DNA from: a virus
Direction: 5' to 3' (one strand)
Length of the DNA: 64,000 nucleotides
Virus record (IMG/VR): IMGVR_UViG_3300013093_000001
Location: 1-64,000 of that record
Shown here: in pieces, positions 23,227 through 63,327 of the stretch
Layout of the letters: every line of letters starts with the position of its first letter
Numbering within the stretch: position 1 is the first letter of the stretch
The notes under the pieces: generated by a model
Told to the model about the DNA's origin: nothing
Seen by the model: the letters and a program-made list of their open reading frames with translations, nothing else
The model's database searches: none
Position numbers and translations under genes: made by a program

Positions 23227-23314
23227 ACTTTAAGTATACCGGAGTGGCAATAAAGGGTGGTAGTGTGGGGTTGTGGTCGGCAAAGGGTCGGCCAGTGGAA
23301 AGGCTGGTTTAGCA

Positions 23315-23827
23315 ATGCCCAATGTTGTTGCACGGATGGGACCGCTGGCGGGTAGAGTGGAGCCGTCAGATGGCACAGGCCGACTTAGGAGCATAATGTC
23401 TACGGTCCCGCGTAATGTATCGAAAGATTTGCCCGCAATGACTGGAGCCGAGTTGCAGTCGATGCGGGAGTATTTGGGGTTGTCGATTGACTGGTTGGCC
23501 GAGCAGCTGACGTTGAATAAGCGGCGCATGTTGCGGATGGAAGAGGGTAAGGAGCGCATACCGACAGTGTTGGTGTCGCTCATTGACGACATTTATGAGG
23601 AAACTAACCAGATGGTTGATGAGTTGTCTGGTCATTACCGTCGTAAGGTTAAGGCCACGCAGAATGATGTGGTGGTGGCGACGTACCGGACTGATCGGGA
23701 GTATGACGCTGCTGGCGGCAAGTATCCCAGTAGGTGGCACAGGATGGTTATGGCGCGGGTGGCGCACGCTGTACCGGGTCTAGTTATTACCCACGCTGTT
23801 GCGGAGGCTGACGCAGAAGCGTTGTAG
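23315..23827 (+). CDS. XRE-type HTH regulator, Aca2/YdiL (DUF1870)-like
   Basis: MTGAELQSMREYLGLSIDWLAEQL...MEEGKERIP, plus C-terminal YRTDREY...WHRMVMARV. Start placed at the ATG after a GGAAAGG RBS. Family call from memory of the motif. Confidence 0.65.
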   Translation: MPNVVARMGPLAGRVEPSDGTGRLRSIMSTVPRNVSKDLPAMTGAELQSMREYLGLSIDWLAEQLTLNKRRMLRMEEGKERIPTVLVSLIDDIYEETNQMVDELSGHYRRKVKATQNDVVVATYRTDREYDAAGGKYPSRWHRMVMARVAHAVPGLVITHAVAEADAEAL

Positions 23828-24098
23828 GCAGGGTATGTTGCTGGGTTGCCCTGTGGTTGGGTTGGTGCAGATTTCTGTGGGTATTGCCCCGCATCGTGGA
23901 CATACGTTTTGTACGGCATCTCGGTATGCGGCGGGCCAGCGTCGTTGCAGCGTTCCCACCACTTCTGTATATGCGTGACTGTGCATGTATTAAGTATGTG
24001 ATAGATTGCGCCTAGACGCAAATACCAGCGTGGCGGCTTTAAGGAATACCGACAGCGCGATAACCTAGCAGCGAATCAACTACAGGAGAATCGAACGT

Positions 24099-24710
24099 AT
24101 GAGTGGCATCAAATTCGTCGGACAGCAGGATGTTCCCGTAGACGACCTCAAGCCGCATCCTGATAATCCGAACCGTGGCAGTGTGGACGACCTACAAACC
24201 TCGCTGGAGCAGTTTGGACAGTTCAGGTCCATCGTCGCCACCAAGGATTTGACTATTCTCGCTGGTCACCACCTGTGGCAAGCGGCTAAGGAGTTGGGTT
24301 ACAAGACCATGCGGGTGGATATTTTGGATGTTGACGACAAAACGGGTCGTAAAATCATGCTGGCCGACAACAGGCTGGCCGATCTGGGTATGGGACCGGA
24401 CCTGGACTTGCTGCTTAAAAACCTGGAAGAGCTTCATGGTGACATCGCAGGGACCGGTTTTGATGAGGAATACCTGCGGATGCTGGAAGATGCCATCCAG
24501 GGTCCACCCGACCTTGAGGAATTGGAGCGGGAGGTCGACGAAAAGCCACCAAGCCCCACGGACTTCTTCAAGCGCATCACCCTACTGGTAGACCCTAGAG
24601 AGCAGACAAGGTGGGAGCGGCACCGCGCTATGTTCCCCGACGACAATGAGGCTTTCCGGTATCTACTGGTCAAGAACGTTCAGGATTCGGAAGCAGGGGA
24701 CGACGGCTAG
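24099..24710 (+). CDS. ParB-like nuclease domain protein
   Basis: LKPHPDNPNRG...SLEQFGQ...ILAGHH...AAKELG...LADNR. Confidence 0.88.
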   Translation: MSGIKFVGQQDVPVDDLKPHPDNPNRGSVDDLQTSLEQFGQFRSIVATKDLTILAGHHLWQAAKELGYKTMRVDILDVDDKTGRKIMLADNRLADLGMGPDLDLLLKNLEELHGDIAGTGFDEEYLRMLEDAIQGPPDLEELEREVDEKPPSPTDFFKRITLLVDPREQTRWERHRAMFPDDNEAFRYLLVKNVQDSEAGDDG

Positions 24711-25745
24711 GTGGGTAAACCGAGCGTCCGCGGGAGGTCAACGATCCCGCCACCGAAAAATGTCCTGTGCTCTTTTTTTTACTACAAAAAAGCGGATATG
24801 GAAAAGATAGCGCCCTGCCGCGTGATCGCGGATTCAGGAGCGTTCTCAGCTAAGCAAAATACGGAAACTTACCAGTTTGGTAACGCCGTCACTACGAAGG
24901 CGTTGGTTGCCTGGACCAAGAAGTGGGAACATTTGCTGTGCTGGGTGGCGTGTATTGACGTTGCGAGTGCTGAGCAAACGAAAATAAATTGGGATCGGAT
25001 GTGTCAGAGCGGTTTGCAGGCTGTTTCTACTCTGCATGTTGGTGACCATCCCAGTACGATGGACTGGTATGCGGAACGCGGGGTAGACTTTCTCGGTTTG
25101 GGTGGTATGGCGGGGAGTTATATTTCCGATAACGCTAAGATGCGCTGGATGATTGACTGCTTCAAATATGCGCGGGAAAACCACCCCGACATGCGCTTTC
25201 ATGGTTGGGGTATCACGCACGCGAAATTCCTGCGGTTACCGTTCTTTTCAGTGGATTCTTCCGGCTGGGGCAGTAGCTATCGGTATGGCCGCATTTCTTT
25301 GCGGAACCCGCTGACGGGAGAAACGCTGCCGTGCGTACTGGACGGTAAGTCTATCTATGACGCTAAGAACAAAAAACTCCGAGAGTTACTGATAGAGCAT
25401 TACGGTGTCAGTCCTAGCGAGATTGCTAAGGCTGGTCCCGCTAACCGGGTGTTGTTAGTCAAGCTATCTGCCTTGTCGGCCTCTGTGCAGGAACAGGAGT
25501 GGCGTAAGACGTTTCGAAAGCAACCCATTTACCCACCCTCTTGGGGCAGACTCAAAGGTTGGACGTTGGGTGACGGTCCTAATCAGCATTTGGCTTTAAG
25601 TGGTTGCGGCGCGGGGATCAGGGAGCGTAAAGCCTTCGCTGAATTCGACTATGGTCCACATATGCACCTGGTTGACGGATTTCCACCCCACTTGCGGGTG
25701 GTGGCTGAATTGAATGGCGCAGAACACCCCGAGGAGCTTGTATGA
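24711..25745 (+). CDS. dpdA: DpdA-like (TGT-fold) DNA 7-deazaguanine transglycosylase
   Basis: DSGAFS, GLGGM, FHGWG and SVDSSGW motifs; directly upstream of queD-queE-folE. Confidence 0.72.
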   Translation: MGKPSVRGRSTIPPPKNVLCSFFYYKKADMEKIAPCRVIADSGAFSAKQNTETYQFGNAVTTKALVAWTKKWEHLLCWVACIDVASAEQTKINWDRMCQSGLQAVSTLHVGDHPSTMDWYAERGVDFLGLGGMAGSYISDNAKMRWMIDCFKYARENHPDMRFHGWGITHAKFLRLPFFSVDSSGWGSSYRYGRISLRNPLTGETLPCVLDGKSIYDAKNKKLRELLIEHYGVSPSEIAKAGPANRVLLVKLSALSASVQEQEWRKTFRKQPIYPPSWGRLKGWTLGDGPNQHLALSGCGAGIRERKAFAEFDYGPHMHLVDGFPPHLRVVAELNGAEHPEELV

Positions 25746-26164
25746 GTACAATTTCTGTGAGAACGCACTTTGCCGCTGGTCACAGGATTTTAGGTTTGGT
25801 CGGCGCTGGCGCTAAGTGTAGGAACATACATGGTCACACCTTCCATGTGACATGGACGTTTGAGCAGAGCAAAGACAACTTCAGCCTGGAGTTCGGTACG
25901 CTCAAGCAGGCGTTGCGCGGCGTCATCAAGGACAATTTCGATCACTCTTTCATCGTTGACCAGGATGACCCGTTTTCGGAATACCTGCGGTTGGAGAGTC
26001 TGAAGCACTACGTTTTGGCCGGTAAACCGACGACTGAGGCCATTGCGGAGGAGATTGCCAACCTGTCTGCCGCTAGCCTTAAAGCGGTGACCAAGCATGT
26101 TGTGATGCGCCGGGTGGCGTTGGAAGAAGGACCGAACAATGTGGCGACGTGGGAAGATGACTAG
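25742..26164 (+). CDS. queD: 6-carboxy-5,6,7,8-tetrahydropterin synthase
   Basis: F.AGHR...C.NIHGH.F...FDH...PT.E motifs. Confidence 0.93.
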   Translation: MSTISVRTHFAAGHRILGLVGAGAKCRNIHGHTFHVTWTFEQSKDNFSLEFGTLKQALRGVIKDNFDHSFIVDQDDPFSEYLRLESLKHYVLAGKPTTEAIAEEIANLSAASLKAVTKHVVMRRVALEEGPNNVATWEDD

Positions 26165-26856
26165 TGCTGTCGCTCTCGGAGGTCTTTGTCAGTCACCAGG
26201 GTGAGGGTCCGCGCTCTGGCAGACTGTGTACGTTCATCAGGCTCGGTGGTTGTAATTTGTCTTGTTCCTGGTGTGACACCCCCTATACCTGGGACGCTAA
26301 GCGCTTTGATTTGCGGCAGGAATTGAAAAGGGTCAAAGCTGAGGACATTATGGCGCTTGTTCCCGGTGACGTTGATGAGGTTGTCATTACTGGTGGTGAG
26401 CCGCTGATGCACCAAAAGACAGCCGACTGGGAGATGCTTTTACGGTTACTGAACCGCGCCGACAAGTACATATGCGTGGAAACTAATGGAACGATTGCGC
26501 CTACGCCGGTCACGCAAACCTACGTCCGACACTACTCAATTTCTCCTAAGCTCCCTAACGCGGGTACCCACAAGAAAGGCCAGAGTCCGGTCATGGCGGT
26601 GTGGCCTAACAGGCTGCGGCATGACGGAACCTGCCTGAAATTCGTGGTTAAAGACGAGTCAGAGGTTAGAGTAGCTGCCGAATTGGCTGACAGTTTGGGT
26701 TGGCAGCGCCGTAACGTGTGGATGATGCCGGAAGGAAGATTTAAGGAATTCCTCCTCGACAGGTGGCCGGAGATTTGTGATGAAGCTAAGGCGCAGCGCG
26801 TCAATGTGACGATGCGCCTGCATGTCCTGGCCTACGGTGACACAAGAGGGACGTAA
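26164..26856 (+). CDS. queE: 7-carboxy-7-deazaguanine synthase (radical SAM)
   Basis: EVF.S.QGEG...FIRLGGCNLSCSWCDT, ITGGEP, VETNGT, SPK, RLH. Confidence 0.95.
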   Translation: MLSLSEVFVSHQGEGPRSGRLCTFIRLGGCNLSCSWCDTPYTWDAKRFDLRQELKRVKAEDIMALVPGDVDEVVITGGEPLMHQKTADWEMLLRLLNRADKYICVETNGTIAPTPVTQTYVRHYSISPKLPNAGTHKKGQSPVMAVWPNRLRHDGTCLKFVVKDESEVRVAAELADSLGWQRRNVWMMPEGRFKEFLLDRWPEICDEAKAQRVNVTMRLHVLAYGDTRGT

Positions 26857-27419
26857 TGGACAAGGTTGAGGCGGCGGTCACCGACCTACTGGCCGCGCTG
26901 GGATTTCCTGCTGACGAGCATTTACGGGACACGCCCCGCAGGGTTGCTCGCGCTTGGCGGGACCAAACGTGGGGCTATGAGGAGGAGCCGGGTCACCACC
27001 TACGCAGAACATTCCCAGCGCCGGACGACGCGGGACTCATTGTTCAGGCTGGTATCGACGTGCAGAGCATCTGCGCTCATCATTTGCTGCCGTTCGGGGG
27101 CCGCGCCACCGTTGCGTACAGGCCCCGGCCGGGTGCACCCATCGTCGGGTTGTCTAAGCTGGCGCGTTTGGTCTACGGGTATGCTGCGCGGCTGCAAGTA
27201 CAGGAGCGGATTGGGAATCAAGTGACGGCGGCGTTAATGGACGAATTGAATCCAGTCGGCGCGGTTTGTCTAATAACGGCTAGCCATGACTGCATGAGAT
27301 TGCGCGGCGTGAGAAGTCCCAGGACAGAGACTACGACAGAATCGGTCGGCGGGTTACTCGCAATCAGCGACATCAACTTGGCTCGGCAGCTGCATGTGCA
27401 GGGAGCCACGCTGCTGTGA
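26856..27419 (+). CDS. folE: GTP cyclohydrolase I
   Basis: DTPRRVARA, SICAHHLLPF.G, GLSKLARLV...RLQVQER, H.CM..RGV. Confidence 0.95.
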   Translation: MDKVEAAVTDLLAALGFPADEHLRDTPRRVARAWRDQTWGYEEEPGHHLRRTFPAPDDAGLIVQAGIDVQSICAHHLLPFGGRATVAYRPRPGAPIVGLSKLARLVYGYAARLQVQERIGNQVTAALMDELNPVGAVCLITASHDCMRLRGVRSPRTETTTESVGGLLAISDINLARQLHVQGATLL

Positions 27420-28378: not shown

Positions 28379-28944
28379 GACAGTCCTTTCTTCTGTGCAG
28401 GCCTGGTGCCCGCAGCTGACCTTCTTTTATTGGGTGGGACCACTTGGTCGCTAATGAATGACGTAATGCCGTTCAGTCTTTGCAGGGGTATCGACTCAGG
28501 GTTGTCGCCGTGGCGCAGCGACAGACCCCTCCTGTAAGCCATGTTGGGATGGTCGGTGATGTAACCGTGACAAGACCTGCATAGGTGGAGGATGTTGGCG
28601 GGAGTCCACTGACCGCCGACTCCGCGAGAAATCCTGTGGTGCATGTCCGTGGCCTTAGCGCGTCCGCAACATTCGCAAATGCCACACGACCTCCCCGCCA
28701 CTGCCTTCCTGGTCGTGTACTCATCCCACTCGTAGTAGAACTTCCCCGACATCTCGCAAGTTTTTCTGGTCTTTGGGACCGGGTGTGGCAGGATTTCATT
28801 CTCGATATCTACGTCAATTAGCTCAAAGCAGCCGGGACAAACGATCACAGGCTTCACCCTTTTTCGGGACGACGTGTGGAGTGGTGTGTTGCACTCCACG
28901 TTAGCCGGTCCTGGTGCTTGTCGACAACAAAGGTCGATAGGCAT
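28348..28944 (-). CDS. HNH endonuclease
   Basis: CECCG..ATDMHHR..R..GG.W...N..HLCRSCH; the true start may be downstream of 28944. Confidence 0.8.
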   Translation of the reverse strand: MPIDLCCRQAPGPANVECNTPLHTSSRKRVKPVIVCPGCFELIDVDIENEILPHPVPKTRKTCEMSGKFYYEWDEYTTRKAVAGRSCGICECCGRAKATDMHHRISRGVGGQWTPANILHLCRSCHGYITDHPNMAYRRGLSLRHGDNPESIPLQRLNGITSFISDQVVPPNKRRSAAGTRPAQKKGLSWKTGYRDAR

Positions 28945-29009
28945 CGTTTTTCCCCTGTCGGTCCTGGTACTTAGTCATTATATGACAGGCGGCTGGCTAT
29001 TCACCATAG

Positions 29010-29369
<360 letters not shown>

Positions 29370-29378
29370 TACAATTTT

Positions 29379-29906: not shown

Positions 29907-29913
29907 TATTGGT

Positions 29914-31018: not shown

Positions 31019-31123
31019 GACCGTTTTTCTCGGCGCGCGTCCCATTCTTGTCGGTGGCCGCTGGTAGGTTTCTGTCTAGTACAACGGCAAACGGTCGTCA
31101 CCGGGATTCGGGAAGGTTGCATC

Positions 31124-31999
31124 ATGTTCAAAACGCAAACATTTATCCACGGAGAACCCGGATTTATAGCGCCGGGAAGCGAAGAACATGCCCAGTATAT
31201 CAGTCCCAGCAAAGTCGCCTCAATCTGTGGCGTCAGCCGCTGGGAAAGCGCCTACACGCTGTGGCATCGGATGAAAAATCTGATCCCACCGAAATCTCAC
31301 GTCGACATTTTTGACACTGGCATCGCTATGGAATTGGCGATGGCAGAGTTATGGAAGTTGCGAAACCCAGGATGGCGTGTATCCCGCGGAGAAGTCCAGT
31401 ATGTGACCGATGAGTTCGATTTCCCCGCGCTGGCGACCATTGACCGCCGCGTCAGCAAAGGCAGGGCAAAACATATTTTGGAGATGAAGATTGCGCGTGA
31501 CCTTGAGGGGTGGGGTGACCCTGACCTGTCAGGGGATGCGCCAGCGGACTACGTCCTGCAAGTAATCTGCCAGCAACTATTCACAGGTCTGCGTGCACCG
31601 GCCAATCTTATGGTTCTGGGTCCGTTTTTCACAGAGCGTGTCTACACCGTTGATTTTGATGTAGATGTCAGCAATTGGGTGATACATGAATGTACCAAGT
31701 TCTACAAGTCGCTGTCGGGTAGTCATGCCCCGGAACTTGATGACAGTGTGTCCACGTATCGTACGGTCAGGCAACTTCACACCAGTATCAACGGGTCCGT
31801 CGTTGAGATACCGGAGGAGCTGGCGACAGAGGTAAATAGCTTACGGCGGCAAATAGAGCCGCTGGAGTCCAGGCTGCGGGGCTGCCGGTCCCAACTCCTG
31901 GAATTGATGGGTGATGCCCAGTACGCCGAAGTCAATGGAGAAAGGATTGCAAGACGCCAACCCAATAGGAGTGGCGGCGTGTCACTGGTGATGGTCTAA
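31124..31999 (+). CDS. YqaJ/RecE-like exonuclease
   Basis: PGSEE..., ISPSKVASICGVSRW.S.Y.LW, ATIDR, LEMK, P.DY..QV..Q; adjacent to a RecT-like gene. Confidence 0.85.
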   Translation: MFKTQTFIHGEPGFIAPGSEEHAQYISPSKVASICGVSRWESAYTLWHRMKNLIPPKSHVDIFDTGIAMELAMAELWKLRNPGWRVSRGEVQYVTDEFDFPALATIDRRVSKGRAKHILEMKIARDLEGWGDPDLSGDAPADYVLQVICQQLFTGLRAPANLMVLGPFFTERVYTVDFDVDVSNWVIHECTKFYKSLSGSHAPELDDSVSTYRTVRQLHTSINGSVVEIPEELATEVNSLRRQIEPLESRLRGCRSQLLELMGDAQYAEVNGERIARRQPNRSGGVSLVMV

Positions 32000-36444: not shown

Positions 36445-38773
36445 TCGGAGAATACTGCAACCGCCACTCGTACAGGTCTTTCTTGTGGGCATCTGCGCGT
36501 AAAATCTCGTCAATAAGTTTGATGACCTCGTCGGATGTTTTGCAGGTGAAAAACAACTCATCAGCTTCACTCCAACCTAGACCGAGAATTTCAGTCGCGT
36601 AGTCCTTGACATTACGCACTGATTTATTAGGCAGGACGCAATAGTCGGTTACGATACTGCCGTCCACGCGCAGATTTAAAAGCTCCTCCTTAAAAGCTAA
36701 TTGGGCACCAGAGTTGACGACGGTCCAGCCTGCTGCACATGCGGTTGTCGGACAGGATGCCGTCAACCACTTGACTGGCTCGCCGTAATAAGTTCCCGAC
36801 TCAATTTCATCGGCATTGTCCATGTCATCGCGGGACAATTTACCCCAACTGGCCTGGTCATGCGTACCTGCTTTCGCTGCGGCAACAATTGTTGCCCGCA
36901 ACTTCTTCAAGGCCGGAATGTTGTAGTCAGCCATTTGCTTCCTTTCTATTTACGCGGCTGCCGTTTGCCGCCGCATACCAATTATGACCGTCCCTGCTGT
37001 TAATCGCAATTGTTGAGAACGCGCTTTACGCGCTCTGGGTAAAAAGAGCGGTAACTATAGTGACCGGGCATACCACCCACGAATGTCAGCGACAGTCGTC
37101 CATCTTTCGACCACGTCGGATAGAGAAATGTGAATTTTCCGCGAACACCGGAAATTGTCATCACAGTTCCAGGACCGACAGCCTTGCCCTTAATTCTCAA
37201 TTCGGCCATCGGATTCTCCGTTCACCAACCTGTATATGACCGTATCGCATCTAATAATTACTTCTTCAATAATTCCACGCTTGACCAAACCAGCGAGCAG
37301 TTGCCTGTCCCTGTATGTCTTCCTCCATTGCGGCAGGTAATAACCTCTGCCGTAGCGCAGCATTTTTTCAATCATCTTCTGCTGCGCTTGACCCAGGCCA
37401 CTACCCATGCGTGTCTGAAACAGGTTGCGACATGTCATGCTCTGGATCATCGAAAAACCAACCCTGGTCGGGGGCATATTCCGACGGGCCGGTATATTTT
37501 GATGGACGACTCGCCTGCTCCCAGCAACTTTTATGCCAGACACTAGGATCATCTGCGTCGATGCTGATTGGTCGACCGTTGAGGTTGCCGTAGCCGTCGT
37601 ACTCTCCCACCAGCAGGCTGCCATCTGGGGTTAACGCCACTGCATCAACCATCCAGCGGTTTATGTTGTTAGCCGCCATGTGACTGAGCAAAGGGTGGCG
37701 ACAGTCATTGCATAACCAGGAAAAGAATCCCATTTTCCCTCCATATTCAAGGTGGTCCGGTGCACCCTACCTGGGACGGGAGTAGGTGTCCCAGGTAGGG
37801 GCCCGACCGGCCATGCGCTTCCCCGCGCACAACCGGGGTCATTGGACGTGCTTCGCTAACTGCTTCGCCGCCGCCGTCACCGGTCGGTTGACTTGTCGCT
37901 CTGCGTGGACAACCTTGGGTGCCTTGACCCGCAGGGTGGCCTTAAACGCCTGCTCCGCAGCAAGCCAATCAGCTAGCTTTTCGTGGTACTTGGCTTCCTC
38001 CTCTAACCACTGCTGACATTTGACAGAATGTGTACGCTCAGCGACCAGCCACTCGGCTATAGCCTTTTCATTGGCTTTTGCTTCCCTGGATTTAATCCAT
38101 TCCAGGGTCTTCGTGTGTAACTCATGTCCACCACACACGCTGTTCGCGCAACAAACATGAGAGTGGGTGTTGTCTTTGTAATATGTTTCCCCGCAGGGGT
38201 CGCAACCTGCTGGGCAGGTTGGCGTCTTGTCGCCGGTCCAACCCATGCACCGCAAGTATTGCCTCATTGCGCCATGTCCAATGGTCCGTATGCGTTGTAG
38301 GGCAGGTCTTGGACAGTCAAAACTTCCTCCCACCGGTACCGGACACCGTCCGGTGTGACAGCCTCATGCGGTCCGTCATGCTCATAAACCCTGTCACCGC
38401 AACCACATGTCAAAGACTCAAAAAACACGCTAATAAAGCAGCAGACACCATCAGGGTGTACCGCTCCGCAGTCGCGGGTAGCCAACGCCACCCCATCACC
38501 ACCGTGGGTAACCAGCGCCGCAGTTTCCTGCAACGCCACAATCACAGGGTCCACAACAACCGGTTCGACCGGCTGCTCCGGCTCATGCTTTTTTAACGTC
38601 GCCGGTCGCCGGGCCGGGTCTGTGTGAGGTACCCGTATAGTCCACGCATCTACGTGGACCGCCTGGTGCATAACAAACCCACGTCCAGCTAACTCGTCAC
38701 CTACAGCTTGGAAGCTGTTGGCTCTAATGCGCGTCCTGCCATAAACAGCCTCAAAGGCATGTTTGTCGTCCAT
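36431..38773 (-). CDS. Run of leftward hypothetical genes (36431..36934, 37000..37209, ~37190..37408, 37401..37733, 37839..~38277, 38264..38773)
   Basis: Co-oriented ORFs with RBSs or overlaps; no function recognised. Confidence 0.55.
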
Positions 38774-38859
38774 TACCTACTCCCTGATCTACTCCCTGTC
38801 GGCTGCCGTTTTGCCGCCGTACCACCATTATGGCCGACACCCCCAGCCACTCACAACCC

Positions 38860-41673: not shown

Positions 41674-42020
41674 CTAAACCGCCGCCCCCACCTTAAGCTG
41701 GAACAACGAGAATTTAGGGTTAGAAACCAGCGGCAGGTGATCCGCACACGTCGCGTATGTGTTGGCAACAGTGATTGCAGGGATGCGTGAGCCGGTCCTG
41801 ACAAAACACACAGCACAAGCGATGTAGTTGTCTGCGACAGCACAGGTCATGTAATTTTCTGCGGCGGTTTTCTTCACCCCGACAGTATGACACCTTTTAA
41901 CGCGACAAGATGCGCCGCTGGCAGTGTGTCCAATACACACGCCAACCCGGTAGCGAAGCCGGTGGACCGGGGTTACCCTGTTGTTATACGGCAAACCGCC
42001 GTGGTCGGAAAGGGGTAACA

Positions 42021-46036: not shown

Positions 46037-46209
46037 AACTAACTCCTACCTGTCGTCAGCGACCCTTTGCCGCCGTACACCACTATTTTAGCTTGCCGGG
46101 TGTTGGTTCACCATAGCCAAATCCCACTTGTTAACCGAGAGTCCAACGCGGCGTCCGTTGAACGTCAGTCCCATCAGCTATGCTGAGTCTGACTGGGAGG
46201 AAAGAACAC

Positions 46210-54268: not shown

Positions 54269-54668
54269 TAGCCGCCACCTCATCTGTCACCGTGGACGCT
54301 GGGTATTTCGGCGCGAGTTGGTCCCGCAGGAACACCCAAATCCGGTCAGGCAGGCTGGTGGTTTCTCCCTGATCGTCGTGCGACGTCAGGGCAACAGGAC
54401 CGCAAATCACGTCCTGGTTACGCATCTCAGGGCATAAACCCCACCACAACGCTGTCGCTGGCTCATTAACCGGCAAGCCTTGCAGTTTGCCTTCTTCGTT
54501 ACACCACATGTCCAGTTCGTCTGTCACCCGAACCAGTTCAATGTAGCCACCGACAACACCCTGTAGGAATCCCAAACTGGTGGCTTCGTCACCTGACGAC
54601 ACCCGCCGAAATTCGTACAGACCACCAGAGTCCTGGTCGATAATGGCCGCTTTGTAACCTGTATTCAT
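54258..54668 (-). CDS. DUF3846-like protein
   Basis: LQ.VVGGYIE.V.....MWCNEEGK..GLPVN..AT...I.GP. Confidence 0.8.
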   Translation of the reverse strand: MNTGYKAAIIDQDSGGLYEFRRVSSGDEATSLGFLQGVVGGYIELVRVTDELDMWCNEEGKLQGLPVNEPATALWWGLCPEMRNQDVICGPVALTSHDDQGETTSLPDRIWVFLRDQLAPKYPASTVTDEVAANAL

Positions 54669-54743
54669 CTTTCCTCCTGTCGGGTCTGACCTCGTGTCAG
54701 ACCTCGTGTCGCGGCAAGGTAGTGAGCCTTGCCGGGACGAACT

Positions 54744-57700
54744 TTACGCTGGCGTGTCTGGGCCAAACATAGAGCGCAAGTAATTGAGCTCTTCTTTTTT
54801 GAGCTCACTGACATAGCGCAACTCGCCGCAGTGTTCGCAACTATGCGGGTGGTCATTGCCACCGTCGCATGAGCCACACACCCAATCGTCATACGTCAAT
54901 CTACTGCTACCTGCCTCTCTTGGTCACATTGAACTTGCCAGCCTTCAAGCGGTCTACTAATTCTCCCAATGCCGCCTCAAAACCGTCCGCGAAGGCGCTC
55001 GCTTCGTTTTGGTCCAGGTTTTTTCGTCTTTGCACAGCCACATGGGAGAGTGTTCCAGTTGGTCACGGACCCCGGCGACTGCTTCTTGACACCACTCCTC
55101 AACCGCGTGCTCGTCAAACTCCATTGTTGCCTTCCTATAAATTGGTCCTGGCCTGTGCCAATACTCGCGTCCCGGTAAGGTAATAAGCCTTACCGGGACT
55201 GTACTAATAATTAGTACGCTTCACCACACCGGCAACCACAGTTACGACGTTATCGGTTCTCCGCGTTGTTCGCCGCGTGCATTGTCCCAGGTATACATCA
55301 TGACATCGAGTGCATTAATGAACCTGACGTACATCTCCGATCCTGTCGGAAGGTAGCGCGGTATAGTTGCGCGTTGATCCCGACCGGTTACGGTTTCCGT
55401 CAAATGCACGTCCACTTGTATGCCGTCGTAGTCAATGCTGACCCTGATCGTCACGACCTAGACTCCCGCTGCATTATACGAATTTCGTCACGGATAACTG
55501 GGTGCCAAAAACTGTTAATTTCCGTTCCTGGTGTCCAATTTTGACGTGCCCACGACCGAAATTCTGCTTCTTCCTCCGGGGTCAAGTCACGGAAAATGCT
55601 CTCAAACTGACCCGACTTGCTGTTGCGGATCATTAAATTCCCCTCCGCATAGTCAAAACATGCGCTGCATGAGCTAAATTAATCCAAGCGTCAGCAAGTT
55701 GTATCTGACAATTGACTGTCAGTCTCTGACCTAGCGGACCATTCTCCACCGCAGTGAGTATTTTTTCTGCTTTCCGCAGGTACTCAACGGTTTCCATTCC
55801 TCCTCCAATCACCTTGGCCGGTTGCCAAGGACAGCGCCTGGGCGGGGCACTGAACCCCACCCAGGCTTCCTCAATCTTTGTAAATCTTGGACCCCAATGC
55901 TTCTTCGGTCGCAATGACCAAATTCTGCATTGTAGTCAACTCCTGCTCCGTGGTTTCCGCCGCCATTGGCATCATCTCAACCCGGTACTCGACAATTTCG
56001 TCAAAACCAGCTTCTAGGTGGTCGTCAACGATTTTGGCAGCAGTAGCCGCTGTCATGCCGGGGTTATTCTCTCGCAGTTGCTGGATAAGTTCGCTGCGAC
56101 TGCCTCGGTAAACTCGGCTCTGGCCTTCCGGCCTCTTGCCGTCAGTCATTTTGGCCGTCAACGTCGATATACAGCGTCCTGCTTGCACCCGGTCCTGTTT
56201 CAACGGTAATAGAAGCGTGGTCACCGTCAAAAACGATTTCAGCACTCCTGACTGCTTCCAACGACCGCTGCTTCACCGCCGCATACTTTGCGTCATGCGC
56301 CGCAAGACTCGCCGCCAAAGGACTTCTGTCTGTCAGGAATCCTGGGACTCGTTCTGACTGCAACCACTTGACCAAACCACTGACAAATTCTCGTGGTAAG
56401 GAAACCGTTGCTTCTGGCGCCTGCTCTACCATTGTGCCAAGCAGCGCATGGGGCCGGTTATTGACGACGGCAAGCATGACATCCAATGCCGGGTTAAGCT
56501 GCTCCAGCGGTAACTCCACGTCCCAGTCCAGACGGTCGAATGCCTGATCGGCTAGTTCGACAGCCCTATTTCGCACGGACTGCAACACGTCAGCAGTATT
56601 AGTATCTGCCATGTTTAACTTCTCCTCTAATCTAGTGCAGGTCGGCTCTTTGCCGACCTCGTACCGGGTGCCGGTACGACCCGACACCCGGCCTCTTTTT
56701 ACGCTACAGCCTCAACGCGGTGGGTGTAAAAACACCCATTCTTCCCGCAGTCCACTTCCTGCTGCACAAGCGACCACATTGCGTCCCACACGCCGAATAG
56801 CAAATCATAATCGGACGGACGACGACCCAAACCGAAATCGTCTTCCGGCTTCATAAACATTGCTATGATCTCGCGTAGCGCCGCTGTCACAATGTCCTTC
56901 GCTGCGTCACACCAAACGAAATTCACGTCTGCCGGGTCGAAGCCCCGGTACCACGACCTCGGTCCCGGCGCTGGCTCTAAACCAGCGTTGGACCGCTCAA
57001 TTTGAGCGGCCCTGTACGCCTTCGTGTCGTGGCAGTCGCAGTAATTCCTGTCAGACGCGACAATCTCATCACTGGCAAGTAACTGCCAAATACTGAGATG
57101 GACACCGGCAAGCAACTCGCTGTCACTGGTCCTGCTGTGCAGGTCCGTGGCATACAAGTCCACGACCTCACGCAAAGCATCCTTCAGGATATCCGTGGCA
57201 TCTTCACACCACAGATAGTCGTCTGACTTTTTGTCGTCTTGGTACTCCCAAGCCATACTTTTCTCCTCCACTATGGGAACCGGCCTTTGCCAGTCCCTCG
57301 TACCCCGGCCGGATTTGACACCGACCGGGGCTGACCTACTACCTACCCTGCGGGAACTCTTCCTGAATCAAAGCGGTGATAAACGCTTTGTGGTCAGCCA
57401 GGGCTTTATTCAGCGCAACGATCACGCCATACACCGCTTGTCGCTCTCGCCAGTCCTGCATCTGCTCCTCGTAGTATTGTCCAGCGGTGACCGTGGAAGC
57501 AGGCAAACGGAACTGTTTGTCCTCACTAAGCGAGTTTAGTATCGCGTTAGGGTCGTCCGGCTTCTGGGGTTGCGGTTCGTTGCCAACAACAGGAGAAAAA
57601 CCCCAGTATTGTGCTTCCAGATGATCGATCAGACCTGTCAGAAATTGCTGCGTTATCGGGAAGCCGTCTTCTCCTGCTGGCTGATCATCCGTCAACACAA

Positions 57701-57803
57701 CGTCGGCAGCCTGCTTCAGCGCTAGCTTCAACGTGCTGCCAGGTACTTCCAAGACGTAATGATCACACGCCTCGTCAATCCGACGCTGCAATTCTGTTGT
57801 CAT
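54744..57803 (-). CDS. Small hypothetical genes (54744..54899, ~54907..55124, 55242..55454, 55451..55633, 55633..55797, 55871..~56148, 56142..56612, 56699..57256, 57339..57803)
   Basis: Starts refined to the ATG/TTG following each RBS; no function recognised. Confidence 0.6.
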
Positions 57804-57878
57804 CTTTCCTCCAATCTGACCCGACCCTTTGCCGGGTTCGTACCCCGGTCAGGCTCGACCCTGACCGGGGCTGGGCAG

Positions 57879-58736
57879 CTAGCTGACCTTCCTGGTCGGC
57901 GCTGCTCGCTTAGCTGGCGCTTTCTTAGGCGCAGCCTTCTTAGCTGGTGTCTTACCAGCCGGATGCCGCTTGACGGACGCTTCCAGCTGCGCCATCAAGT
58001 CGGACACGTCGTCGTCGCGCTGGTCCAGATCAACGACGCTGGTCAACACGCCACCCTTAGCTTTCGTGTCAATCAACGCCGCGACCTGCGCGGTGTAGGT
58101 GTCAACGAAGTTGGCGGGACTAAAGTCCTCAATCATGCTGTCAACGACTGCGTGCGCCATTTCCAGCATTTTGGGTGACTCAATGGTCCCGTTTAAATGC
58201 TGCAAACCATTAGCGTCACGGATTTCGTCCAGCCAAATCAGGGTGTGCATGACCAACACGTTGCCAAGGACGCGGATGACAGCCATTTGCTGTCGTGTTC
58301 GCAACACAAACTTTGCGACCGCAACAACATCTGACTCCACCATGACCCGACGCAACAGCGCGTAACCTTGAGAGCTGTTGTCTGTGGGTTCCAAAAAGTA
58401 ACTGGACTCCCACATAATCGGGTCAATCTCGTCACTGTGACAAAACTGGACCACCTCAATGGCCGACAACTTATTGGCTTCCTGCAACTGCGCCAGGTCG
58501 TCATCGGTAATAACGACAATCTTGTCGTCATCAACCAGCTTGCCTTTAATGACTTCGTCAGACCGTGGGTTGACGCCACACTTCTTACACACGCGGGGCT
58601 GACCAATCGCACCCTCGCAACCTGCATGGAACAGGTTAAACGAGATGTCATGGCTGTCCGTTGCCTTGTAGAGTTTGACACCCACATTCACTAAACCGAA
58701 GTTCAGTGACGTGTTTTTCACTGATCTCATACCCAT
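57879..58736 (-). CDS. ku: Ku DNA end-binding protein
   Basis: SLNFGLVNV.VKLY.AT, I.V.QF...EIDP....SYFL.P, GYALLR, F.DTY, DV.DLMA.LEASV, basic PAKKA tail. Confidence 0.95.
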   Translation of the reverse strand: MGMRSVKNTSLNFGLVNVGVKLYKATDSHDISFNLFHAGCEGAIGQPRVCKKCGVNPRSDEVIKGKLVDDDKIVVITDDDLAQLQEANKLSAIEVVQFCHSDEIDPIMWESSYFLEPTDNSSQGYALLRRVMVESDVVAVAKFVLRTRQQMAVIRVLGNVLVMHTLIWLDEIRDANGLQHLNGTIESPKMLEMAHAVVDSMIEDFSPANFVDTYTAQVAALIDTKAKGGVLTSVVDLDQRDDDVSDLMAQLEASVKRHPAGKTPAKKAAPKKAPAKRAAPTRKVS

Positions 58737-58897
58737 GTTTTCCTCCTCCACGGCGACCCTTTGCCACCGCTTATTTATTTTAGCCAGACAACTGGCTACT
58801 CACCACCCGGTGGTGGCGAAATCTATGACCCCTCCAGGTAAAATCTCCTCAATACAGGGGAGGTGTAACGACCCGTCAGGTTCGCTACACCCCCTCC

Positions 58898-61800
58898 CTA
58901 CTCAGGGTGGTAAATGCCGTGCATTTCGTCTAGGCATTTGTCGCAGTGCTTGACGTAAGACGGCTTTCCGTCAACTAGCCAAAACTCTGTACCATAAATC
59001 TGGTTTGGCAATATCTGCCTCACGCATGTACTACAGGCATGGCTCTTCCTTGCTCGGCGGTACCGGGTCTCACCTAGCTGTAATTCATCAATCCAGTCAA
59101 CTTCTTCTGGATCATCCCTGTAGCCAGCGTAGATGCTAGCCACAATGCCACCGCAGCATTTGAGAATAGTTGACGCAACCCTCTGCGTAACCCTCGGTAT
59201 ACATTTCCGCTCTCTGCTGGTCGTATTGCCGCTCCGACTCCTTGTACTGCGCGAGCAGTTCAGGCGACAGACGTGACTCGTCAACAGTCAACAAAACTCG
59301 CTGACCATTGCACACAGAGCAAAGCGCATCATAGACACCCGACTTGTAATCCTGCCAAAAGTCGGGGTCTTGATCGTACATTTCATCCTGGGTCATACCG
59401 CCCTCCCAGCAATCATGCACACCGCGACCTTCACAACGCCAGCAGACCTCGTACTTGTCGGGCAAGTTGACGCTCGTCGGTCCGTCTTCGCTGTTTGCGT
59501 CGGTACCAAGCATCTGGTACTTCATGCTTCTCTCCTCCTAACCGGGCTGGCTTGTGCCAGCCTCGCACCCTGGCCGGGTTCGACCCCGGCCAGGGCTCGT
59601 CAGGCCAATCCCCTGACGTACAGGTAACCCTTCACCCGTTCGGCCAGCTCGTAAGCGGAATCGATGATATCCAATTCGTTGGACGAATTGTCATACCGCT
59701 CGTAAAACTGGTTCAGCGCAGCCACGACCGCCTTTGCGTCGTATTCTTGCCGCTCCTGCATAATCGGCAATGACTGCGGCGACCACCAGTGGCCGCTCAC
59801 ATACCCGGCTTGAAGTCGAAGTACACACGCGGGTTGTGCGTGAACTCCATGACACCTTCGACACGGTCCGACTTCCGTCGGACCATGACGTATGGAGCAG
59901 AGAAGCCAATGACTTCAAATTCTGCCTGTAACTGCTCGGTGTCCCACGTCTGTCCCTCTGGCTTGCGACCAGAGTCGTAGTTGTGGATTTCAATACCTGA
60001 CATTTTTCCTCCTCCACTTGGGTCGGCCTGGTGCCGACCTCGCGCCGTGGTTGAGTTCGACCCCAACCACGGCAATTCTTAGTCTCAAACCCGCAGCGTA
60101 ACAGCCTGCGGGTTCCTCAACCCAACCGCGAAGGTGTGGTCACCACCGACATCCGTATTACAATGACGGCAGTAGGTTGTAGCACCTACCACTGACAGCG
60201 CTGATCGCACCCAGGCGAAATGATCGCCAACACACGGCAGGCAAACAGCGCCTCCAGGTTGACCGCACTCCTGCATTGCAATATGCGTTGCTTCCCGTTT
60301 GCCACACAGGCCACACCGAATTACCCCGCCAGCTACCTCAGCTAACGAATAAATCTCCCTGAGAGTTTCGATATATGCTTCACCCGTTTTCTCGCTGAGA
60401 GACTCAAGTAATTCTGCTATTAATTCTTCTCCCATGTTTCCTCCTCCTTGTGGCTGGTTGTCAGCCCCGTGCGCTGGCCGGGTAATGAACCCGGCCAGGG
60501 CTGTGTCATAGCCGCGACAGGACACCGTTAATTAGTTCTGCCACCGCATCCAACGTCACGCCACCAGACAATTTTAGCTTCTCAGCAACATAATCAGCGC
60601 TGACCGGACTGTCGAAGGTGTATGCCCCGCAGGACTTGACTGCAACGAATACCTGCCTGTGGTTGACATAACTGATCGTATTGCTGCCACCGACGTCGCA
60701 AGGCGATGCAAACAAAATCCGCAGCGCAGTAGCCTGTCTATCCGTCCAAAGCAGAGCGACCGACCCGTAGTAATTCATATCGAACACCACGGCGTCGAAT
60801 GTACCGTCGCTGTTGACAACCTGATTGTATTCGTCAAGCGTGTACTGCCGCTCACCCATCACTCTGGTCCGTTCGCCCAAAAATCCAGCAACTCAAGAAT
60901 TCCGGTGAGGGCTTCGGCAATAGCTATCTGCGCGTGGTCCTGGCTAGTTGGACGCAAATCCGCACGCCCGTTTTTAGCCCAACCGATCCGCTCTCGCGCA
61001 TTTTTCAGGTGTTGATTCACTTTTCCTCCAATCTGGTCCGGCATTTGCCGGACTCGTACCCCGGCCAGGTTCGACCCTGGCCGGGGCGTGTCTAGCTCGC
61101 TATGACGCCGCTACCCTCGCAACGCAGGCAGGTCTGGTATCCCAGCGACTCGTGGTCGTAGTCAAACCATTGCGACCCTGGTTCAAGTTGCAGAAGCTTG
61201 CTGCGGTGCAATTCCTCGCTGTAGTTAAAGCCTTCGCCGCTGCAACCCGCGCAAGTGCGCTTGCCTGTCAACTGCAATTCCAGTTCGTAGACAATCGCCG
61301 CAACCTCACAGTTGCAAATATTGACGCTGTGATCGCAACCCAAATCGTCTGAGAGGTATTCAATCAACGACGCCACCAGCGCCTTGGGTACAGGTTGACT
61401 GTCACCCCGCTCTGGGTGTTTTTCCATCTCAGCGCGGTAGTCAGCGATCTCAGTTCTGCGCATCAATGTCCAAGACGGACGTTCGATGGGGTCACTGACC
61501 CGCAACGCCTCACTCAGCAGGACATTCTCAATTTCGACCCACTCAGTAGACATCTCTCCTCCTAACTGGGCTGGCCTCTTGCCAGCCTCGTACCCCGGCC
61601 AGGTTCGACCCTGACCGGGGCTATTTCAACGAACCGTGAACGACACGGTCATTCCGTCACTCCTACGGTCTATCCTGTCACGCAAACGCGACAGCGAAGC
61701 AAACAGGTGTGCGTGTGGGACTGCTGCAACACCGAACCGTTTGAAACCACCTGGATCGTCAAACTCATCTGCTAAAAACGACTCCGTGTAGTAGTCCTCT

Positions 61801-62667
61801 GCGTCTTCGTCAACGTAGCGCACAACTAATCTCCTCACAGGCAACGGACTCAACTCAGCCAGCAACGGCTCCCACAAGCATTGATCGGCAGTGAACGTCA
61901 CTTCGTTCTTCGGCCAGCCAAACGTGTCCCTCGGTCCTTCTGACACCCAAGACCAACCTAGCCCTACGGCCATAGTCCGTATGTTTGCTCGGTTTTTCTC
62001 TGCAATCTCGTACTCGTACTGCACAGTTTTTTCCTCCTCCTAACTGGTCTGGCTCATGCCAGACTCGTACCCGGTACAGGTTCGACCCTGTACCGGGCGC
62101 TACCGCTAAACCTTCTGCTTACGCGGCTCAAACTCGGTCACAATCGGTTGCGTAGCAGACCCATGATGTGTCCAGTGGTAGTACCCCATCTGGTCAACAC
62201 CAGTGAACTCTAAGGGTGGCGGGAACTCTACTAAAACATAGCCGTAACCCAACCGGGCACCTTGCTGCCGGAAGTTATGTTTGGCTTCCGACACGCTGCT
62301 GCCTCGACCCCAGCGGTTTTGACCCATCACAAGGAATGTGGACATTCTTTCCTCCAATCTGACCCGACCTCTTGCCGGGTTCGCGTCCTAGCCAGGTTCG
62401 ACCCTGACTAGGACTCCTTTATTAGTCTTGGGTACCGTAGCTACCCAACCTGCCACGCAATTCTTTCAGCGTGTCAATCTCCCGCGTCAACTGGTTGGCG
62501 TGTGCTTTGGCGACTTCCAGCGCCGCGTTCCCAACCGCTCGGGTGATGTGCCTGAGCGTGGCATTGATGTGGCTGATGTCAGTGGACTGCCGCAACCACA
62601 TCGCGTCCCGCAAGCAGCCATCCAACTCCAAAACCAAGTCGTTGATGGCGTCTTGTAAGTGCTCCAT
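58898..62667 (-). CDS. Small hypothetical genes (58898..~59143, 59136..59525, 59600..59800, 59797..60003, 60085..60435, 60506..60859, 60859..61020, 61092..61553, 61626..62024, 62106..62345, 62422..62667)
   Basis: Most begin directly after a repeat copy and a GGAGG RBS; several carry CxxC or CxxCxGxG motifs. Confidence 0.65.
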
Positions 62668-62740
62668 TTTCCTCCTTCTAACTGGCTGACTCTTTGTCAG
62701 CCTCGTACCCCGGCCAGTTCTGACACTGGCCGGGGCCACC

Positions 62741-63271
62741 TCACGCCGCAAATGCGTCGTACCACACCTTCCGCTTGTCACCACAGCAAGGGCCATAAAA
62801 CCACCCACGCCTATTAACTCTAAGCCGGTGCGCTGTCACGTTACCGTGACAGTAGAAGCAATGCGGGACCAGCTTACCGTCAGCTATCGTAAACTCTAGC
62901 TGCTGCCTCGGCTTATTGTTCCAGCCAACAAAGAACCTAAAAATTCTCAGGTGACTGGTATGACGCATCAAATGCAATGACCTTGCTAGCCTCGCTAACC
63001 GCAGCAGGGCTAAACCACCACCTGCCACGGGCAGTAACGCTGCCACAATGACACAAGCATCAAACACGTTCCAAAAAGACCGGAAGAAAAGCCTGGTAAA
63101 CGCGACACGAAGAGCCAGTTCACACGCAAAGAACAGCAAAACAGCGTTGTCCAGCCGCTCAAGTAATTCAGCGTTCGTGTCATCTACAAGGCTCCACGCC
63201 ACCAGACCAAGGTTGGTTAGAATTGCGACCATCACTACCCGGTCTAGCGGGGAAGACCTGTTGTGCGACAT
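62741..63271 (-). CDS. Voltage-sensor-domain (Ion_trans S1-S4) protein without pore
   Basis: F..E..LR (S2), FFRS.WNVFD..VI (S3), LRLARLAR.L.L.R (S4); no pore helices follow. Confidence 0.8.
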   Translation of the reverse strand: MSHNRSSPLDRVVMVAILTNLGLVAWSLVDDTNAELLERLDNAVLLFFACELALRVAFTRLFFRSFWNVFDACVIVAALLPVAGGGLALLRLARLARSLHLMRHTSHLRIFRFFVGWNNKPRQQLEFTIADGKLVPHCFYCHGNVTAHRLRVNRRGWFYGPCCGDKRKVWYDAFAA

Positions 63272-63327
63272 TTCTCATAAACCTCCTCCTAACATCCCCG
63301 ACCCTGTGTCGGGGAAATCTGTGTGGG

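Follow-up and report, generated by a model that had tools for sequence, protein, structure and literature searches.

A recurrent RNA hairpin behind predicted promoters of an uncultured phage clade may protect the 5' ends of non-structural mRNAs

Why should the same small hairpin stand before genes of one phage genome both behind promoter-like sequences and, in a long array of cistrons, behind a second hairpin? The question is raised by a 64,000-nt window (positions 1 to 64,000 of IMG/VR record IMGVR_UViG_3300013093_000001), in which an earlier note had listed eight sites where this element, hairpin A, occurs without the hairpin B that precedes it in the array. All eight indeed carry the described sequence, and the identity of the 12-mer GGCAAAGGGTCG at 23279(+), 46060(-), 57822(-) and 58754(-) is exact (0.34 matches expected by chance), with a one-mismatch version at 31086(+). 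The hairpin is real but had been drawn too short. As can be seen in Table 1, it consists of a 7-9 bp stem, G-U pairs allowed, with the apex GGC-A-NNN-G-G(C/U)C, that is, an A-N-N-N-G pentaloop closed by GGC/G(C/U)C, and a strong Shine-Dalgarno (SD) sequence starts 0-11 nt 3' of it. The conserved apex features are the closing C-G, the first loop A, the last loop G and the G-C third pair. Loop positions 2-4 are free to vary inside a single genome, and both 4- and 6-nt loops and G.A mismatches are tolerated: at 36951 and 38800, the apex GC-AAA(A)CG-GC is retained and followed by a G.A mismatch and 4-5 further pairs. The hairpin has no U tract. Rfam covariance models returned no match at gathering score across the 64-kb window, and only chance-level matches (E > 2) at 53.5-64 kb.

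Table 1. Hairpin A copies and promoter-like sequences in the window (R1 and R2, covariance models).
Feature	Position	Strand	Details
Extended -10, TGg-TAGTGT	23258..23266	+	Precedes HTH gene; no convincing -35
Stand-alone hairpin A, tggtcggc-AAAGG-gtcggcca	23274..23294	+	8 bp, 2 G-U; 7 nt after -10; SD GGAAAGG, then ATG 23315; HTH_31 protein 23315-23827; R2 22.3 bits, E 0.008
Stand-alone hairpin A, tgcgggc-ACCAG-gcctgca	28396..28414	-	SD GAAAGGA, ATG 28378; no promoter upstream; overlaps 3' end of HNH endonuclease ORF; R2 22.6 bits, E 0.0075
Promoter motif, TGGTGA-N18-TATAAT	28977..29006	-	Before HNH endonuclease gene; without hairpin A
Extended -10, TGg-TAGGTT	31062..31070	+	Precedes recE-like gene
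Weak hairpin A, acggc-AAACG-gtcgt	31084..31098	+	5 bp; 13 nt after -10; RecE-like gene 31124-31999; R2 11.7 bits, E 2.8
Promoter motif, TTGCGA-N17-CATAAT	36981..37009	-	
Variant hairpin A, GCGGC-G-GC-AAACG-GC-A-GCCGC	36951..36977	-	Apex retained, G.A mismatch; predicted +1 at base of 5-bp outer stem; gene 36431-36934 (phrog_889) downstream; R2 11.8 bits, E 2.6
Promoter motif, TTGTGA-N18-CATAAT	38827..38856	-	
Variant hairpin A, CGGC-G-GC-AAAACG-GC-A-GCCG	38800..38819	-	6-nt loop; 7 nt after -10; gene 38264-38773 downstream
-10-like TACCCT	41974..41979	+	Divergent intergenic region
Hairpin, tacggc-AAACC-gccgtg	41987..42003	+	6 bp; last loop base C, not G; 7 nt after -10; gene 42021-42392 downstream
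Promoter motif, TGGTGA-N17-TAAAAT	46085..46113	-	
Stand-alone hairpin A, cggcggc-AAAGG-gtcgctg	46057..46075	-	7 bp, 2 G-U; 9 nt after -10; gene 45809-46036; R2 19.5 bits, E 0.039
Array hairpin A with identical 12-mer GGCAAAGGGTCG	57819..57837	-	Behind hairpin B (12 bp, loop GTCGAG) and linker ACGA
Promoter motif, TGGTGA-N17-TAAAAT	58777..58805	-	Palindrome GCCAG-N4-CTGGC adjoins -10
Stand-alone hairpin A, gcggtggc-AAAGG-gtcgccgt	58750..58770	-	8 bp, 3 G-U; 6 nt after -10; GGAGGAGG immediately 3'; Ku gene 57879-58736; R1 18.2 bits, R2 19.1 bits
Hairpin A, tccccgac-ACAGG-gtcgggga	63295..63315	-	Without B, no promoter-like sequence; precedes AGGAGGAGG and Ion_trans-like gene 62741-63271; ~330-nt non-coding stretch upstream; R2 18.0 bits

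A genome-wide motif scan, which the earlier note had suggested as a check, gave 24 sense-biased matches to G[GA]C-ANANN-G[CT]C on stems of 6 bp or more, against 0.8 in shuffled sequences. All covariance-model matches at E < 0.1 are sense to the local genes, which bears out the claim that the hairpin is always oriented with transcription, and its reported absence before tail genes (1-22.8 kb) and lysis genes (46.2-52.8 kb) also held. Each genome has more than 50 members of this family, every one associated with an SD; in about 45 cases the hairpin is inter-cistronic and has hairpin B rather than a promoter in front of it. Model R2, which was trained solely on hairpins from other genomes, detects the copies at 23273, 46055, 58749 and 63294 at E 0.008-0.09, and those at 36953 and 31080 only at E ~2.7, while neither R1 nor R2 detects the hairpins at 38800 and 41987. 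Additional copies lie at 28396-28414(-) within the window, where the earlier note had overlooked it, and beyond the window at 88351, 89236, 92627 and 92347.

The stand-alone copies at 23274, 36951, 38800, 41987, 46057 and 58750 have a -10 box 6-9 nt before the stem, as do those at 88351, 89236 and 92627 outside the window. The gap is thus shorter than the 8-14 nt initially given, reaching 13 nt only at the weak 31084 site. A (T/C)ANNNT box is found in the tested interval of 9 of the 12 stand-alone copies (p = 4e-4), and a -35-like hexamer at 16-18 nt is also present in six of the 12 (p = 1e-6, partly post hoc; these very sites served to define the -35 class T[TG]G[TC][GC]A). The composite motif TGGTGA-N17/18-TA[ACT]A[AG]T occurs six times in the genome, always on the minus strand, versus 0.075 times in shuffles. 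For folding, +1 was set at 7 nt beyond the predicted -10, promoters and start sites both being predictions. On this basis, nine of 10 sites of this genome (G000) have the first stem base at +1 to +3, the assigned +1 is a purine in 8 of 10, and folding of the 10 sites from the predicted +1 leaves the SD mostly unpaired. The proposal that transcripts start almost at the hairpin fits these nine sites but not 31084, where it would begin at about +8. Not all promoters have hairpin A: an HNH endonuclease gene is preceded by one at 29006(-) that lacks it, and the same-family promoters at 91257(-) and 55226(-) are directly followed by other stable hairpins. Since neither a promoter nor hairpin B lies upstream of the copies at 63295, 28396 and 92347, a 5'-terminal position is not universal; the first of these, which the earlier note had listed at 63296-63314, is nevertheless a good hairpin preceding an SD.

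The same arrangement recurs in three related IMG/VR phages (G1, G3 and G5), whose promoters were picked solely by each genome's own motif. The hairpin and its SD follow 25 of 30 such promoters (9/13 in G3, 5/6 in G5 and 11/11 in G1), the stem starts within ~5 nt of the assumed +1, and the apex is retained in 24 of the 25 hairpins. Orthologous genes are especially informative. A Vipr-like gene that has B/A upstream in G000 has a promoter and hairpin A in G3 and G5, and the same exchange is seen for gene 74629 (promoter and A in G5) and gene 70297 (in G1). Because orthologues with promoter and A in relatives carry B and A here, hairpin A emerges as the constant part of the 5' UTR, which lends comparative support to the earlier suggestion that initiation and cleavage would yield the same 5' end. 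In G000 and G1 alike the Ku gene has a promoter and hairpin A, the promoters and the stems being unrelated in sequence between the two, and gene 60039, preceded by B/A in G000, has A alone in G1, the loop being ACCAG in both. In G1 and G3, a conserved upstream box lies just 9-12 nt from the -10, a spacing that suggests that these may not be plain SigA promoters. Judging from protein similarity, the host would be of Mycobacterium type.

How the stems vary indicates the level at which they act. In the stand-alone copies, 88.6% of cells pair and covariation exceeds that of every shuffle and every slid control; when the relatives are added, 93.3% of cells pair, with both-side changes in 48 cells. 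Non-Watson-Crick pairs in the stand-alone stems comprise 12 G-U versus four A-C on the sense strand, and three of the four A-C pairs lie outside the 5-bp stem of 31084. These wobbles and compensatory changes point to hairpin A acting as RNA rather than as a DNA operator. According to the operator reading, the repeat would be a double-stranded site at +1 to +20, where a repressor such as the HTH protein encoded at 23315 blocks initiation or elongation in the manner of Cluster A stoperators. Such a role would suit a repeat lying directly 3' of promoters, with one copy before the HTH gene, permitting autoregulation, and with a stoperator-like fixed orientation relative to transcription. It is however quite improbable, considering that conservation is limited to 3 bp in each arm, that the arms covary, that the second pair is G-U (GGC/GTC) in 11 of 32 sequences, which breaks DNA symmetry, that the inter-cistronic copies have no promoter, and that a separate operator-like palindrome, GCCAG-N4-6-CTGGC, already adjoins the -10 in G3, G5 and two G000 promoters. 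The repressor site that the earlier note had entertained is disfavored on the same grounds (covariation and G-U pairs). The 17-bp palindrome TGTTCGGNNNCCGAACA of Cluster O and the Cluster A stoperators (PMC4351075) are likewise present many times in actinophage genomes, in the short gaps between genes of the non-structural arm, but these repeats are invariant in sequence, whereas the arms of hairpin A covary and include G-U wobbles and the element is strictly sense-oriented. The Cluster O palindrome has no meaningful orientation, occurs also inside genes and is read as double-stranded DNA (PMC4351075). Identity with a DNA operator or stoperator was rejected, only the GGC/G(C/U)C apex being retained.

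Elements are homogenized within genomes, as seen in the G1 loops, mostly ACCAG, and in the nearly identical G3 promoters. The repeats could then be mainly recombination cassettes like T4-type PeSLs (described in PMC4122927), kept similar by gene conversion, used for shuffling modules and devoid of an RNA role, which would also accommodate the small orphan genes each flanked by the same element and the orthologues behind differing upstream partners. We regard this as improbable, because compensatory changes, together with G-U pairs on the sense strand, reveal that pairing in the RNA is under selection and because the distances to the -10 and the SD are constrained; shuffling could in any case coexist with an RNA function. 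PeSLs (PMC2839356, PMC4122927) likewise combine a repeated early promoter and a stem-loop beside small variable genes, and modules are swapped there. However, in PeSLs a terminator stem-loop comes ahead of the promoter, while hairpin A comes behind it and forms the predicted mRNA 5' end; the reversed order and the missing U tract led us to reject identity.

What might the hairpin do as RNA? On balance, we lean towards the view that a standard 5'-UTR cassette, with hairpin A as its 5' element, protects the mRNA 5' ends of non-structural genes. The cassette (hairpin, 0-11 nt, GGAGG-type SD, start codon) would be used for these genes by an uncultured clade of Mycobacterium-type phages. With the -10 at 6-9 nt from the stem, the primary transcript would start at, or within ~3 nt of, the helix base and have a base-paired 5' end. 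5' stabilizers, which Bacillus mRNAs also carry, have a limit of ~2-4 unpaired nucleotides before the stem. A flush 5' stem-loop would deny a single-stranded end to enzymes of 5'-end-dependent decay (an RppH-type pyrophosphohydrolase, RNase E and RNase J), and hairpin A would keep the SD clear of upstream pairing, yielding stable, uniformly translatable mRNAs. Greater structure in the 5' UTR goes along with a longer half-life in M. smegmatis (PMC11532794), and a 5'-terminal stem-loop stabilizes E. coli mRNA (Emory et al. 1992, as cited in PMC10641625). The ompA 5' UTR stabilizer (Emory, Bouvet and Belasco 1992, cited in PMC10641625) is likewise a stable hairpin that sits between the RBS and the mRNA 5' end, a few nucleotides from the latter. 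While ompA-type stabilizers are single-gene elements that were experimentally tested, the putative stabilizer hairpin A is reused on more than 50 genes in at least four phage genomes and has a conserved apex.

Among the three functions that the earlier note had proposed for a common tag, the stabilizer fits best. The third, a nut/boxB-like or put-like RNA making RNA polymerase read through terminators, is very improbable. A promoter-proximal pentaloop hairpin does recall lambda nutL/nutR, and the B/A double hairpin loosely resembles the two stem-loops of HK022 put. The boxB loop has a GNRA-like frame, G first and A last, as opposed to the A...G frame here, and a lambda-type boxB, which needs that loop, a 5-bp stem and one or two sites, was rejected for an element with 7-9 bp, more than 50 copies per genome and a link to the SD that is unlike the nut/put distribution. 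We saw no terminator-rich context, and the Rfam comparison of the window gave no match to favor this reading.

A pure stabilizer would need no conserved apex, and its retention points to sequence-specific recognition: a conserved factor may also read hairpin A, given that GGC-A..G-G(C/U)C is kept across four genomes. It is conceivable, though unlikely, that recognition is the main role, hairpin A being a binding tag through which a conserved phage or host RNA-binding protein jointly controls how more than 50 non-structural genes are translated or processed, with stabilization secondary. The apex is constant and the lower stem covaries across four genomes with unrelated promoters, and the hairpin adjoins the SD, as such a tag might; yet no candidate protein emerged, the freedom of loop positions 2-4 and the tolerated 4- and 6-nt loops and G.A mismatches speak against it, and tagging is compatible with 5' protection, not exclusive of it. 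Restriction to non-structural genes recalls the Start Associated Sequences and extended SAS (SAS/ESAS) of Cluster K mycobacteriophages, for which a bound factor was likewise proposed (PMC3203893). As described for these and for Cluster EF Microbacterium phages (PMC3203893, PMC7302621), SAS/ESAS lie in sense at non-structural starts only, occur with or without an upstream inverted repeat, paralleling A alone versus B and A, and travel with gene families among related genomes, all of which we found for hairpin A. However, the SAS as given there is a 13-bp conserved asymmetric sequence containing the RBS (GGGATAGGAGCCC), whereas hairpin A is a stem-loop with covarying arms, followed by a normal GGAGG SD, and a search of G000 for GGGATAGGAGCCC with up to two mismatches gave no match. 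The accessible text of PMC3203893 describes no link of SAS/ESAS to promoters or transcript 5' ends.

In the 22-kb array of G000, hairpin B (12 bp) and the linker ACGA fill the promoter slot before hairpin A. Of 31 copies of hairpin B, 25 have a stem of exactly 12 bp; the hairpin has a T-loop-like GUCGAA loop and a trailer ACGA, which we compared with ACCA. In mycobacteria, RNase E cleaves on the 5' side of C in single-stranded RNA (RN/CNU, the slash marking the cut), leaving a 5' monophosphate (PMC10641625), a motif that the linker fits at the C only. If the B/A linker were cut, the next cistron would begin with CGA followed by hairpin A, so that its 5' end would match that of an mRNA initiated at a promoter. 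More speculatively still, these elements, whose transcription starts, cleavage, stabilization and any bound factor we infer, might form an RNA punctuation system, in which B mimics a tRNA acceptor/T-arm minihelix, a host tRNA-processing enzyme (RNase Z or P) or RNase E cuts A/CGA, and A serves the whole clade as a tag, capping the newly made 5' end and bringing in a dedicated factor. If this doubtful scheme were true, promoters and processing sites would be interchangeable routes to one standard mRNA.

We were able to locate the described sequence of hairpin A, the small stem-loop just 5' of the Shine-Dalgarno sequence (SD), at all eight sites where an earlier note had placed it without hairpin B, its 5' partner in the array repeats, and at seven of them behind a -10-like box. 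Exact copies of the 12-mer GGCAAAGGGTCG occur four times, always on the coding strand, whereas chance predicts 0.34. The hairpin is real, but the true structure is larger than first drawn: a stem of 7-9 bp (G-U allowed), closed by GGC/G(C/U)C, bears a pentaloop whose first base is A and whose last is usually G, and ends 0-11 nt from a GGAGG-type SD. A strict regular expression gives 24 matches, versus 0.8 in shuffles. R1, a covariance model made from array copies only, recovers about 40 array copies and then the stand-alone hairpins at 58750, 92627, 88351, 63295, 23274, 36951 and 46057. R2, a hairpin-only model trained solely on hairpins of other genomes, finds 23273, 46055, 58749 and 63294 at E values of 0.008-0.09 and a further, overlooked copy at 28396-28414(-); it scores 36953 and 31080 only at E ~2.7, and its scan of this genome (G000) does not recover 38800 and 41987. 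At E ≤ 0.1, R2 yields ~27 matches in G000 versus 0-4 per control phage genome. As had been claimed, model matches with E < 0.1 are all sense to local genes and none precedes the tail genes (1-22.8 kb) or lysis genes (46.2-52.8 kb), with gene coordinates taken from an ORF listing and a crude codon-usage gene caller.

Six hairpin A sites are preceded by a two-box motif, T(T/G)G(T/C)GA and (T/C)A..(A/G)T spaced by 17-18 nt, and the other sites differ in what lies upstream, as listed in the table. The form TGGTGA-N17/18-TA[ACT]A[AG]T is found six times in the genome, always on the minus strand, versus 0.075 in 200 dinucleotide-preserving shuffles. Of the 12 stand-alone hairpins, nine show a -10-like box in the tested interval (p = 4e-4), and six of them a -35-like box too (p = 1e-6, an optimistic value, one -35 class having been derived from those very sites). 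A generic sigma-70 scan recovered just two of the promoters, since TGGTGA is a poor match to TTGACA. The -10 box lies 6-9 nt from the first paired base (13 nt at 31084); with +1 assumed 7 nt past it, the stem would start at +1 to +3 in 9 of 10 sites, on a purine in 8 of 10, and folding from this assumed +1 leaves the SD mostly unpaired.

Features associated with hairpin A and its promoters (G000 unless stated; for promoter boxes, the position is that of the hairpin A site)
Feature	Position	Strand
Two-box promoter motif, in the window	36951, 38800, 46057, 58750	
Two-box promoter motif, beyond the window	88351, 92627	
TTGCGA-N17-AATAAT	89236	
TGN-extended -10 only	23274, 31084	
TACCCT as -10-like box	41987	
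Hairpin A, no promoter-like sequence found	63295	
GCCAG-N4-6-CTGGC palindrome	58783-58799, 28983-29000	minus
Typha hairpin-A-like element, GGGGCAGGC-AACCG-GCCAGCCCC	64711-64733	
Typha hairpin-A-like element, GGGCAGGC-ATCAG-GCCAGCCC	66473-66495	

Hairpin A is not on every promoter. The promoter at 29006(-), 5' of an HNH endonuclease gene, is without it, and those at 91257(-) and 55226(-) have other stable hairpins immediately 3'. At the latter (window 55163-55226, minus strand), TGGTGA-N17-TACAGT runs directly into a B-type hairpin, CCCGGTAAGG-cttatta-CCTTACCGGG, and hairpin B may therefore also sit at a transcript 5' end. Upstream of the 22-kb minus-strand array, the divergent region at 75700-76200 of G000 contains neither a TGGTGA-type promoter nor hairpin A; the first feature downstream of it on the minus strand is a ~340-nt structured RNA. 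A palindrome, GCCAG-N4-6-CTGGC, adjoins the -10 box in two G000 promoters and in all family promoters of two related phages, G3 and G5, and looks like the operator of a clade-conserved regulator, distinct from hairpin A.

The confirmed observation holds beyond this one genome, in a clade of related phages. A terminase search returned 23 IMG/VR relatives, and we compared G1 (97 kb), G3 (42.5 kb) and G5 (33 kb). In each of these, the promoters share a conserved, genome-specific motif; between the four genomes, promoter sequences are unrelated. At sites picked by promoter motif alone, hairpin A and an SD follow within a few nucleotides in 11/11 cases in G1, 9/13 in G3 and 5/6 in G5, and the GGC-A..G-G(C/U)C apex is retained in 24 of the 25 promoter-selected hairpins. 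Five further IMG/VR relatives, all fragments, have 0-1 R2 matches each, an uninformative number. R1 gave no matches on Bipper, Typha or prophiGD43A-5, no B/A-type element was found among the tightly packed genes of phage Omega (Cluster J), and Ku-based locus searches returned no close relative, only one unrelated 72-kb contig from which the element is absent. DNA-pattern matches to the B/A repeat, 14 in IMG/VR and four in JGI metagenomes, were at chance level, R1 confirming none of them.

Is hairpin A an RNA structure or, as one option of the earlier note had it, a double-stranded repressor site? In the ten stand-alone copies, 88.6% of stem cells are paired, with covariation above all 500 shuffles and all slid controls. 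Moreover, the non-Watson-Crick pairs of these stems comprise 12 G-U on the sense strand versus four A-C, three of the latter outside the short stem of 31084. Covariation and sense-strand G-U pairs together favor a sense-strand RNA structure, and the operator option is accordingly disfavored. An alignment of 32 sequences has 93.3% of cells paired, partly by construction since the relatives' sites were first located by a hairpin scan, and 48 cells with both sides changed.

Orthologous genes reveal that what precedes hairpin A is exchanged. The array repeat (B/A) upstream of a gene for a 220-aa protein (89704-90366) in G000 is replaced by promoter and hairpin A in G3 and G5, as it is for array gene 74629 in G5 and array gene 70297 in G1. 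Gene 60039 has B/A in G000 and hairpin A alone in G1, with the loop ACCAG in both and different stems, while Ku has promoter and hairpin A in G000 and G1, with promoter and stem sequences unrelated between them. These comparisons identify hairpin A as what stays constant in a gene's 5' UTR; its upstream partner can, judging from the sequences, be a promoter, hairpin B or nothing.

We propose a standard 5'-UTR cassette in which hairpin A would give the mRNA a base-paired 5' end. Two routes would generate this end: transcription initiation, or cleavage within the 3-5 nt linker 3' of hairpin B. In 17 of 31 copies that linker reads ACGA. Mycobacterial RNase E cuts 5' of C in single-stranded RNA, yielding a 5'-monophosphate end (PMC10641625); ACGA agrees with its motif RN|CNU at the C only. 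In M. smegmatis, longer half-life accompanies a more structured 5' UTR (PMC11532794). The transcription starts, the cleavage and stabilization by hairpin A are inferred. The earlier proposal of a common 5' tag is supported in part, by placement after promoters and by the swaps, with its DNA repressor option disfavored. That a bound factor reads hairpin A is a live alternative, compatible with stabilization, which alone leaves the conserved apex unexplained. In 25 of 31 copies of hairpin B (window 53700-64000(-), on to 75 kb), the stem measures exactly 12 bp and carries a loop of 6 nt, mostly GTCGAA. With its T-loop-like loop and ACCA-like trailer, it would by analogy resemble a tRNA acceptor/T-arm minihelix, the minimal substrate for RNase Z and RNase P; no tRNA was detected by ARAGORN or Rfam.

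An Rfam search of the window returned no family match at the gathering score. Of the elements described so far, the SAS/ESAS repeats in actinophages of Clusters K and EF (PMC3203893, PMC7302621) come closest. They share gene class, orientation and a two-form architecture with hairpin A but consist of a conserved sequence overlapping the RBS, for which a search here found no counterpart. PeSLs of T4-type phages (PMC2839356, PMC4122927) also combine promoter and stem-loop, but in the opposite order, and the Cluster O palindrome (PMC4351075) is an invariant DNA repeat. The Cluster J paper reports as repeats only transposon ends and integrase arm sites, and mentions no stem-loop, hairpin, promoter, palindrome or conserved sequence. 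The cultured Mycobacterium phage Typha has two hairpin-A-like elements directly 5' of the SD of genes 103 and 108; both share an A/A internal mismatch with the G1 Ku hairpin, and TGGTGA-N17-TGATAT lies 33 nt upstream of the first.

Beyond the window, the hairpin at 90387 was ruled out as a stand-alone copy by a B-type hairpin upstream. The 220-aa protein encoded downstream of it, on the minus strand, has no Pfam match; residues 153-207 match PDB 36pp_D, 'SUSP1 Vipr protein' (E 3e-4), and its orthologues share 46% (G3) and 53% (G5) identity. Upstream of its gene, at ~90707-91258(-), lies a GGY-NN pentamer array; TGGTGA-N17-TAAAAT at 91257 precedes it, as does a long hairpin situated at the predicted 5' end. 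Protein and array look like a VIPR system (Viral Interference Programmable Repeat; bioRxiv 10.64898/2026.04.26.720920).

The IMG/VR virus record from which the window comes spans 113,905 bp with direct terminal repeats. The window (54.8% GC) encodes Ku, RecE/RecT-like proteins, an Rv2525c-type endolysin and a queuine tRNA-ribosyltransferase-like protein. The last, of DpdA type (phrog_7068, E 3e-107), belongs to an operon 3' of the HTH gene (24099-27419(+)) and hints at 7-deazaguanine modification of phage DNA. The Ku protein is nearest to Mycobacterium Ku (43-46% identity), with Cluster J phage Ku at 36%, and its nearest relatives are in Logan contigs (47-50%); the terminase is nearest to those of the cultured Mycobacterium phages Typha and Bipper (55%). 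Such similarities point to a host probably in the Mycobacteriales.

If the model is true, a mycobacteriophage-like virus group uses one small hairpin to give dozens of early mRNAs a standard 5' end, which would arise from initiation or RNA processing. It would offer a testable model of how actinophage transcripts are protected from the host RNase E/RNase J machinery, experiments in M. smegmatis being feasible with the two Typha genes, and the promoter-hairpin-SD cassette is a portable, ready-made expression part for mycobacterial genetics. For the start-associated repeats of actinobacteriophages, long without an explanation, the model would likewise suggest a role.
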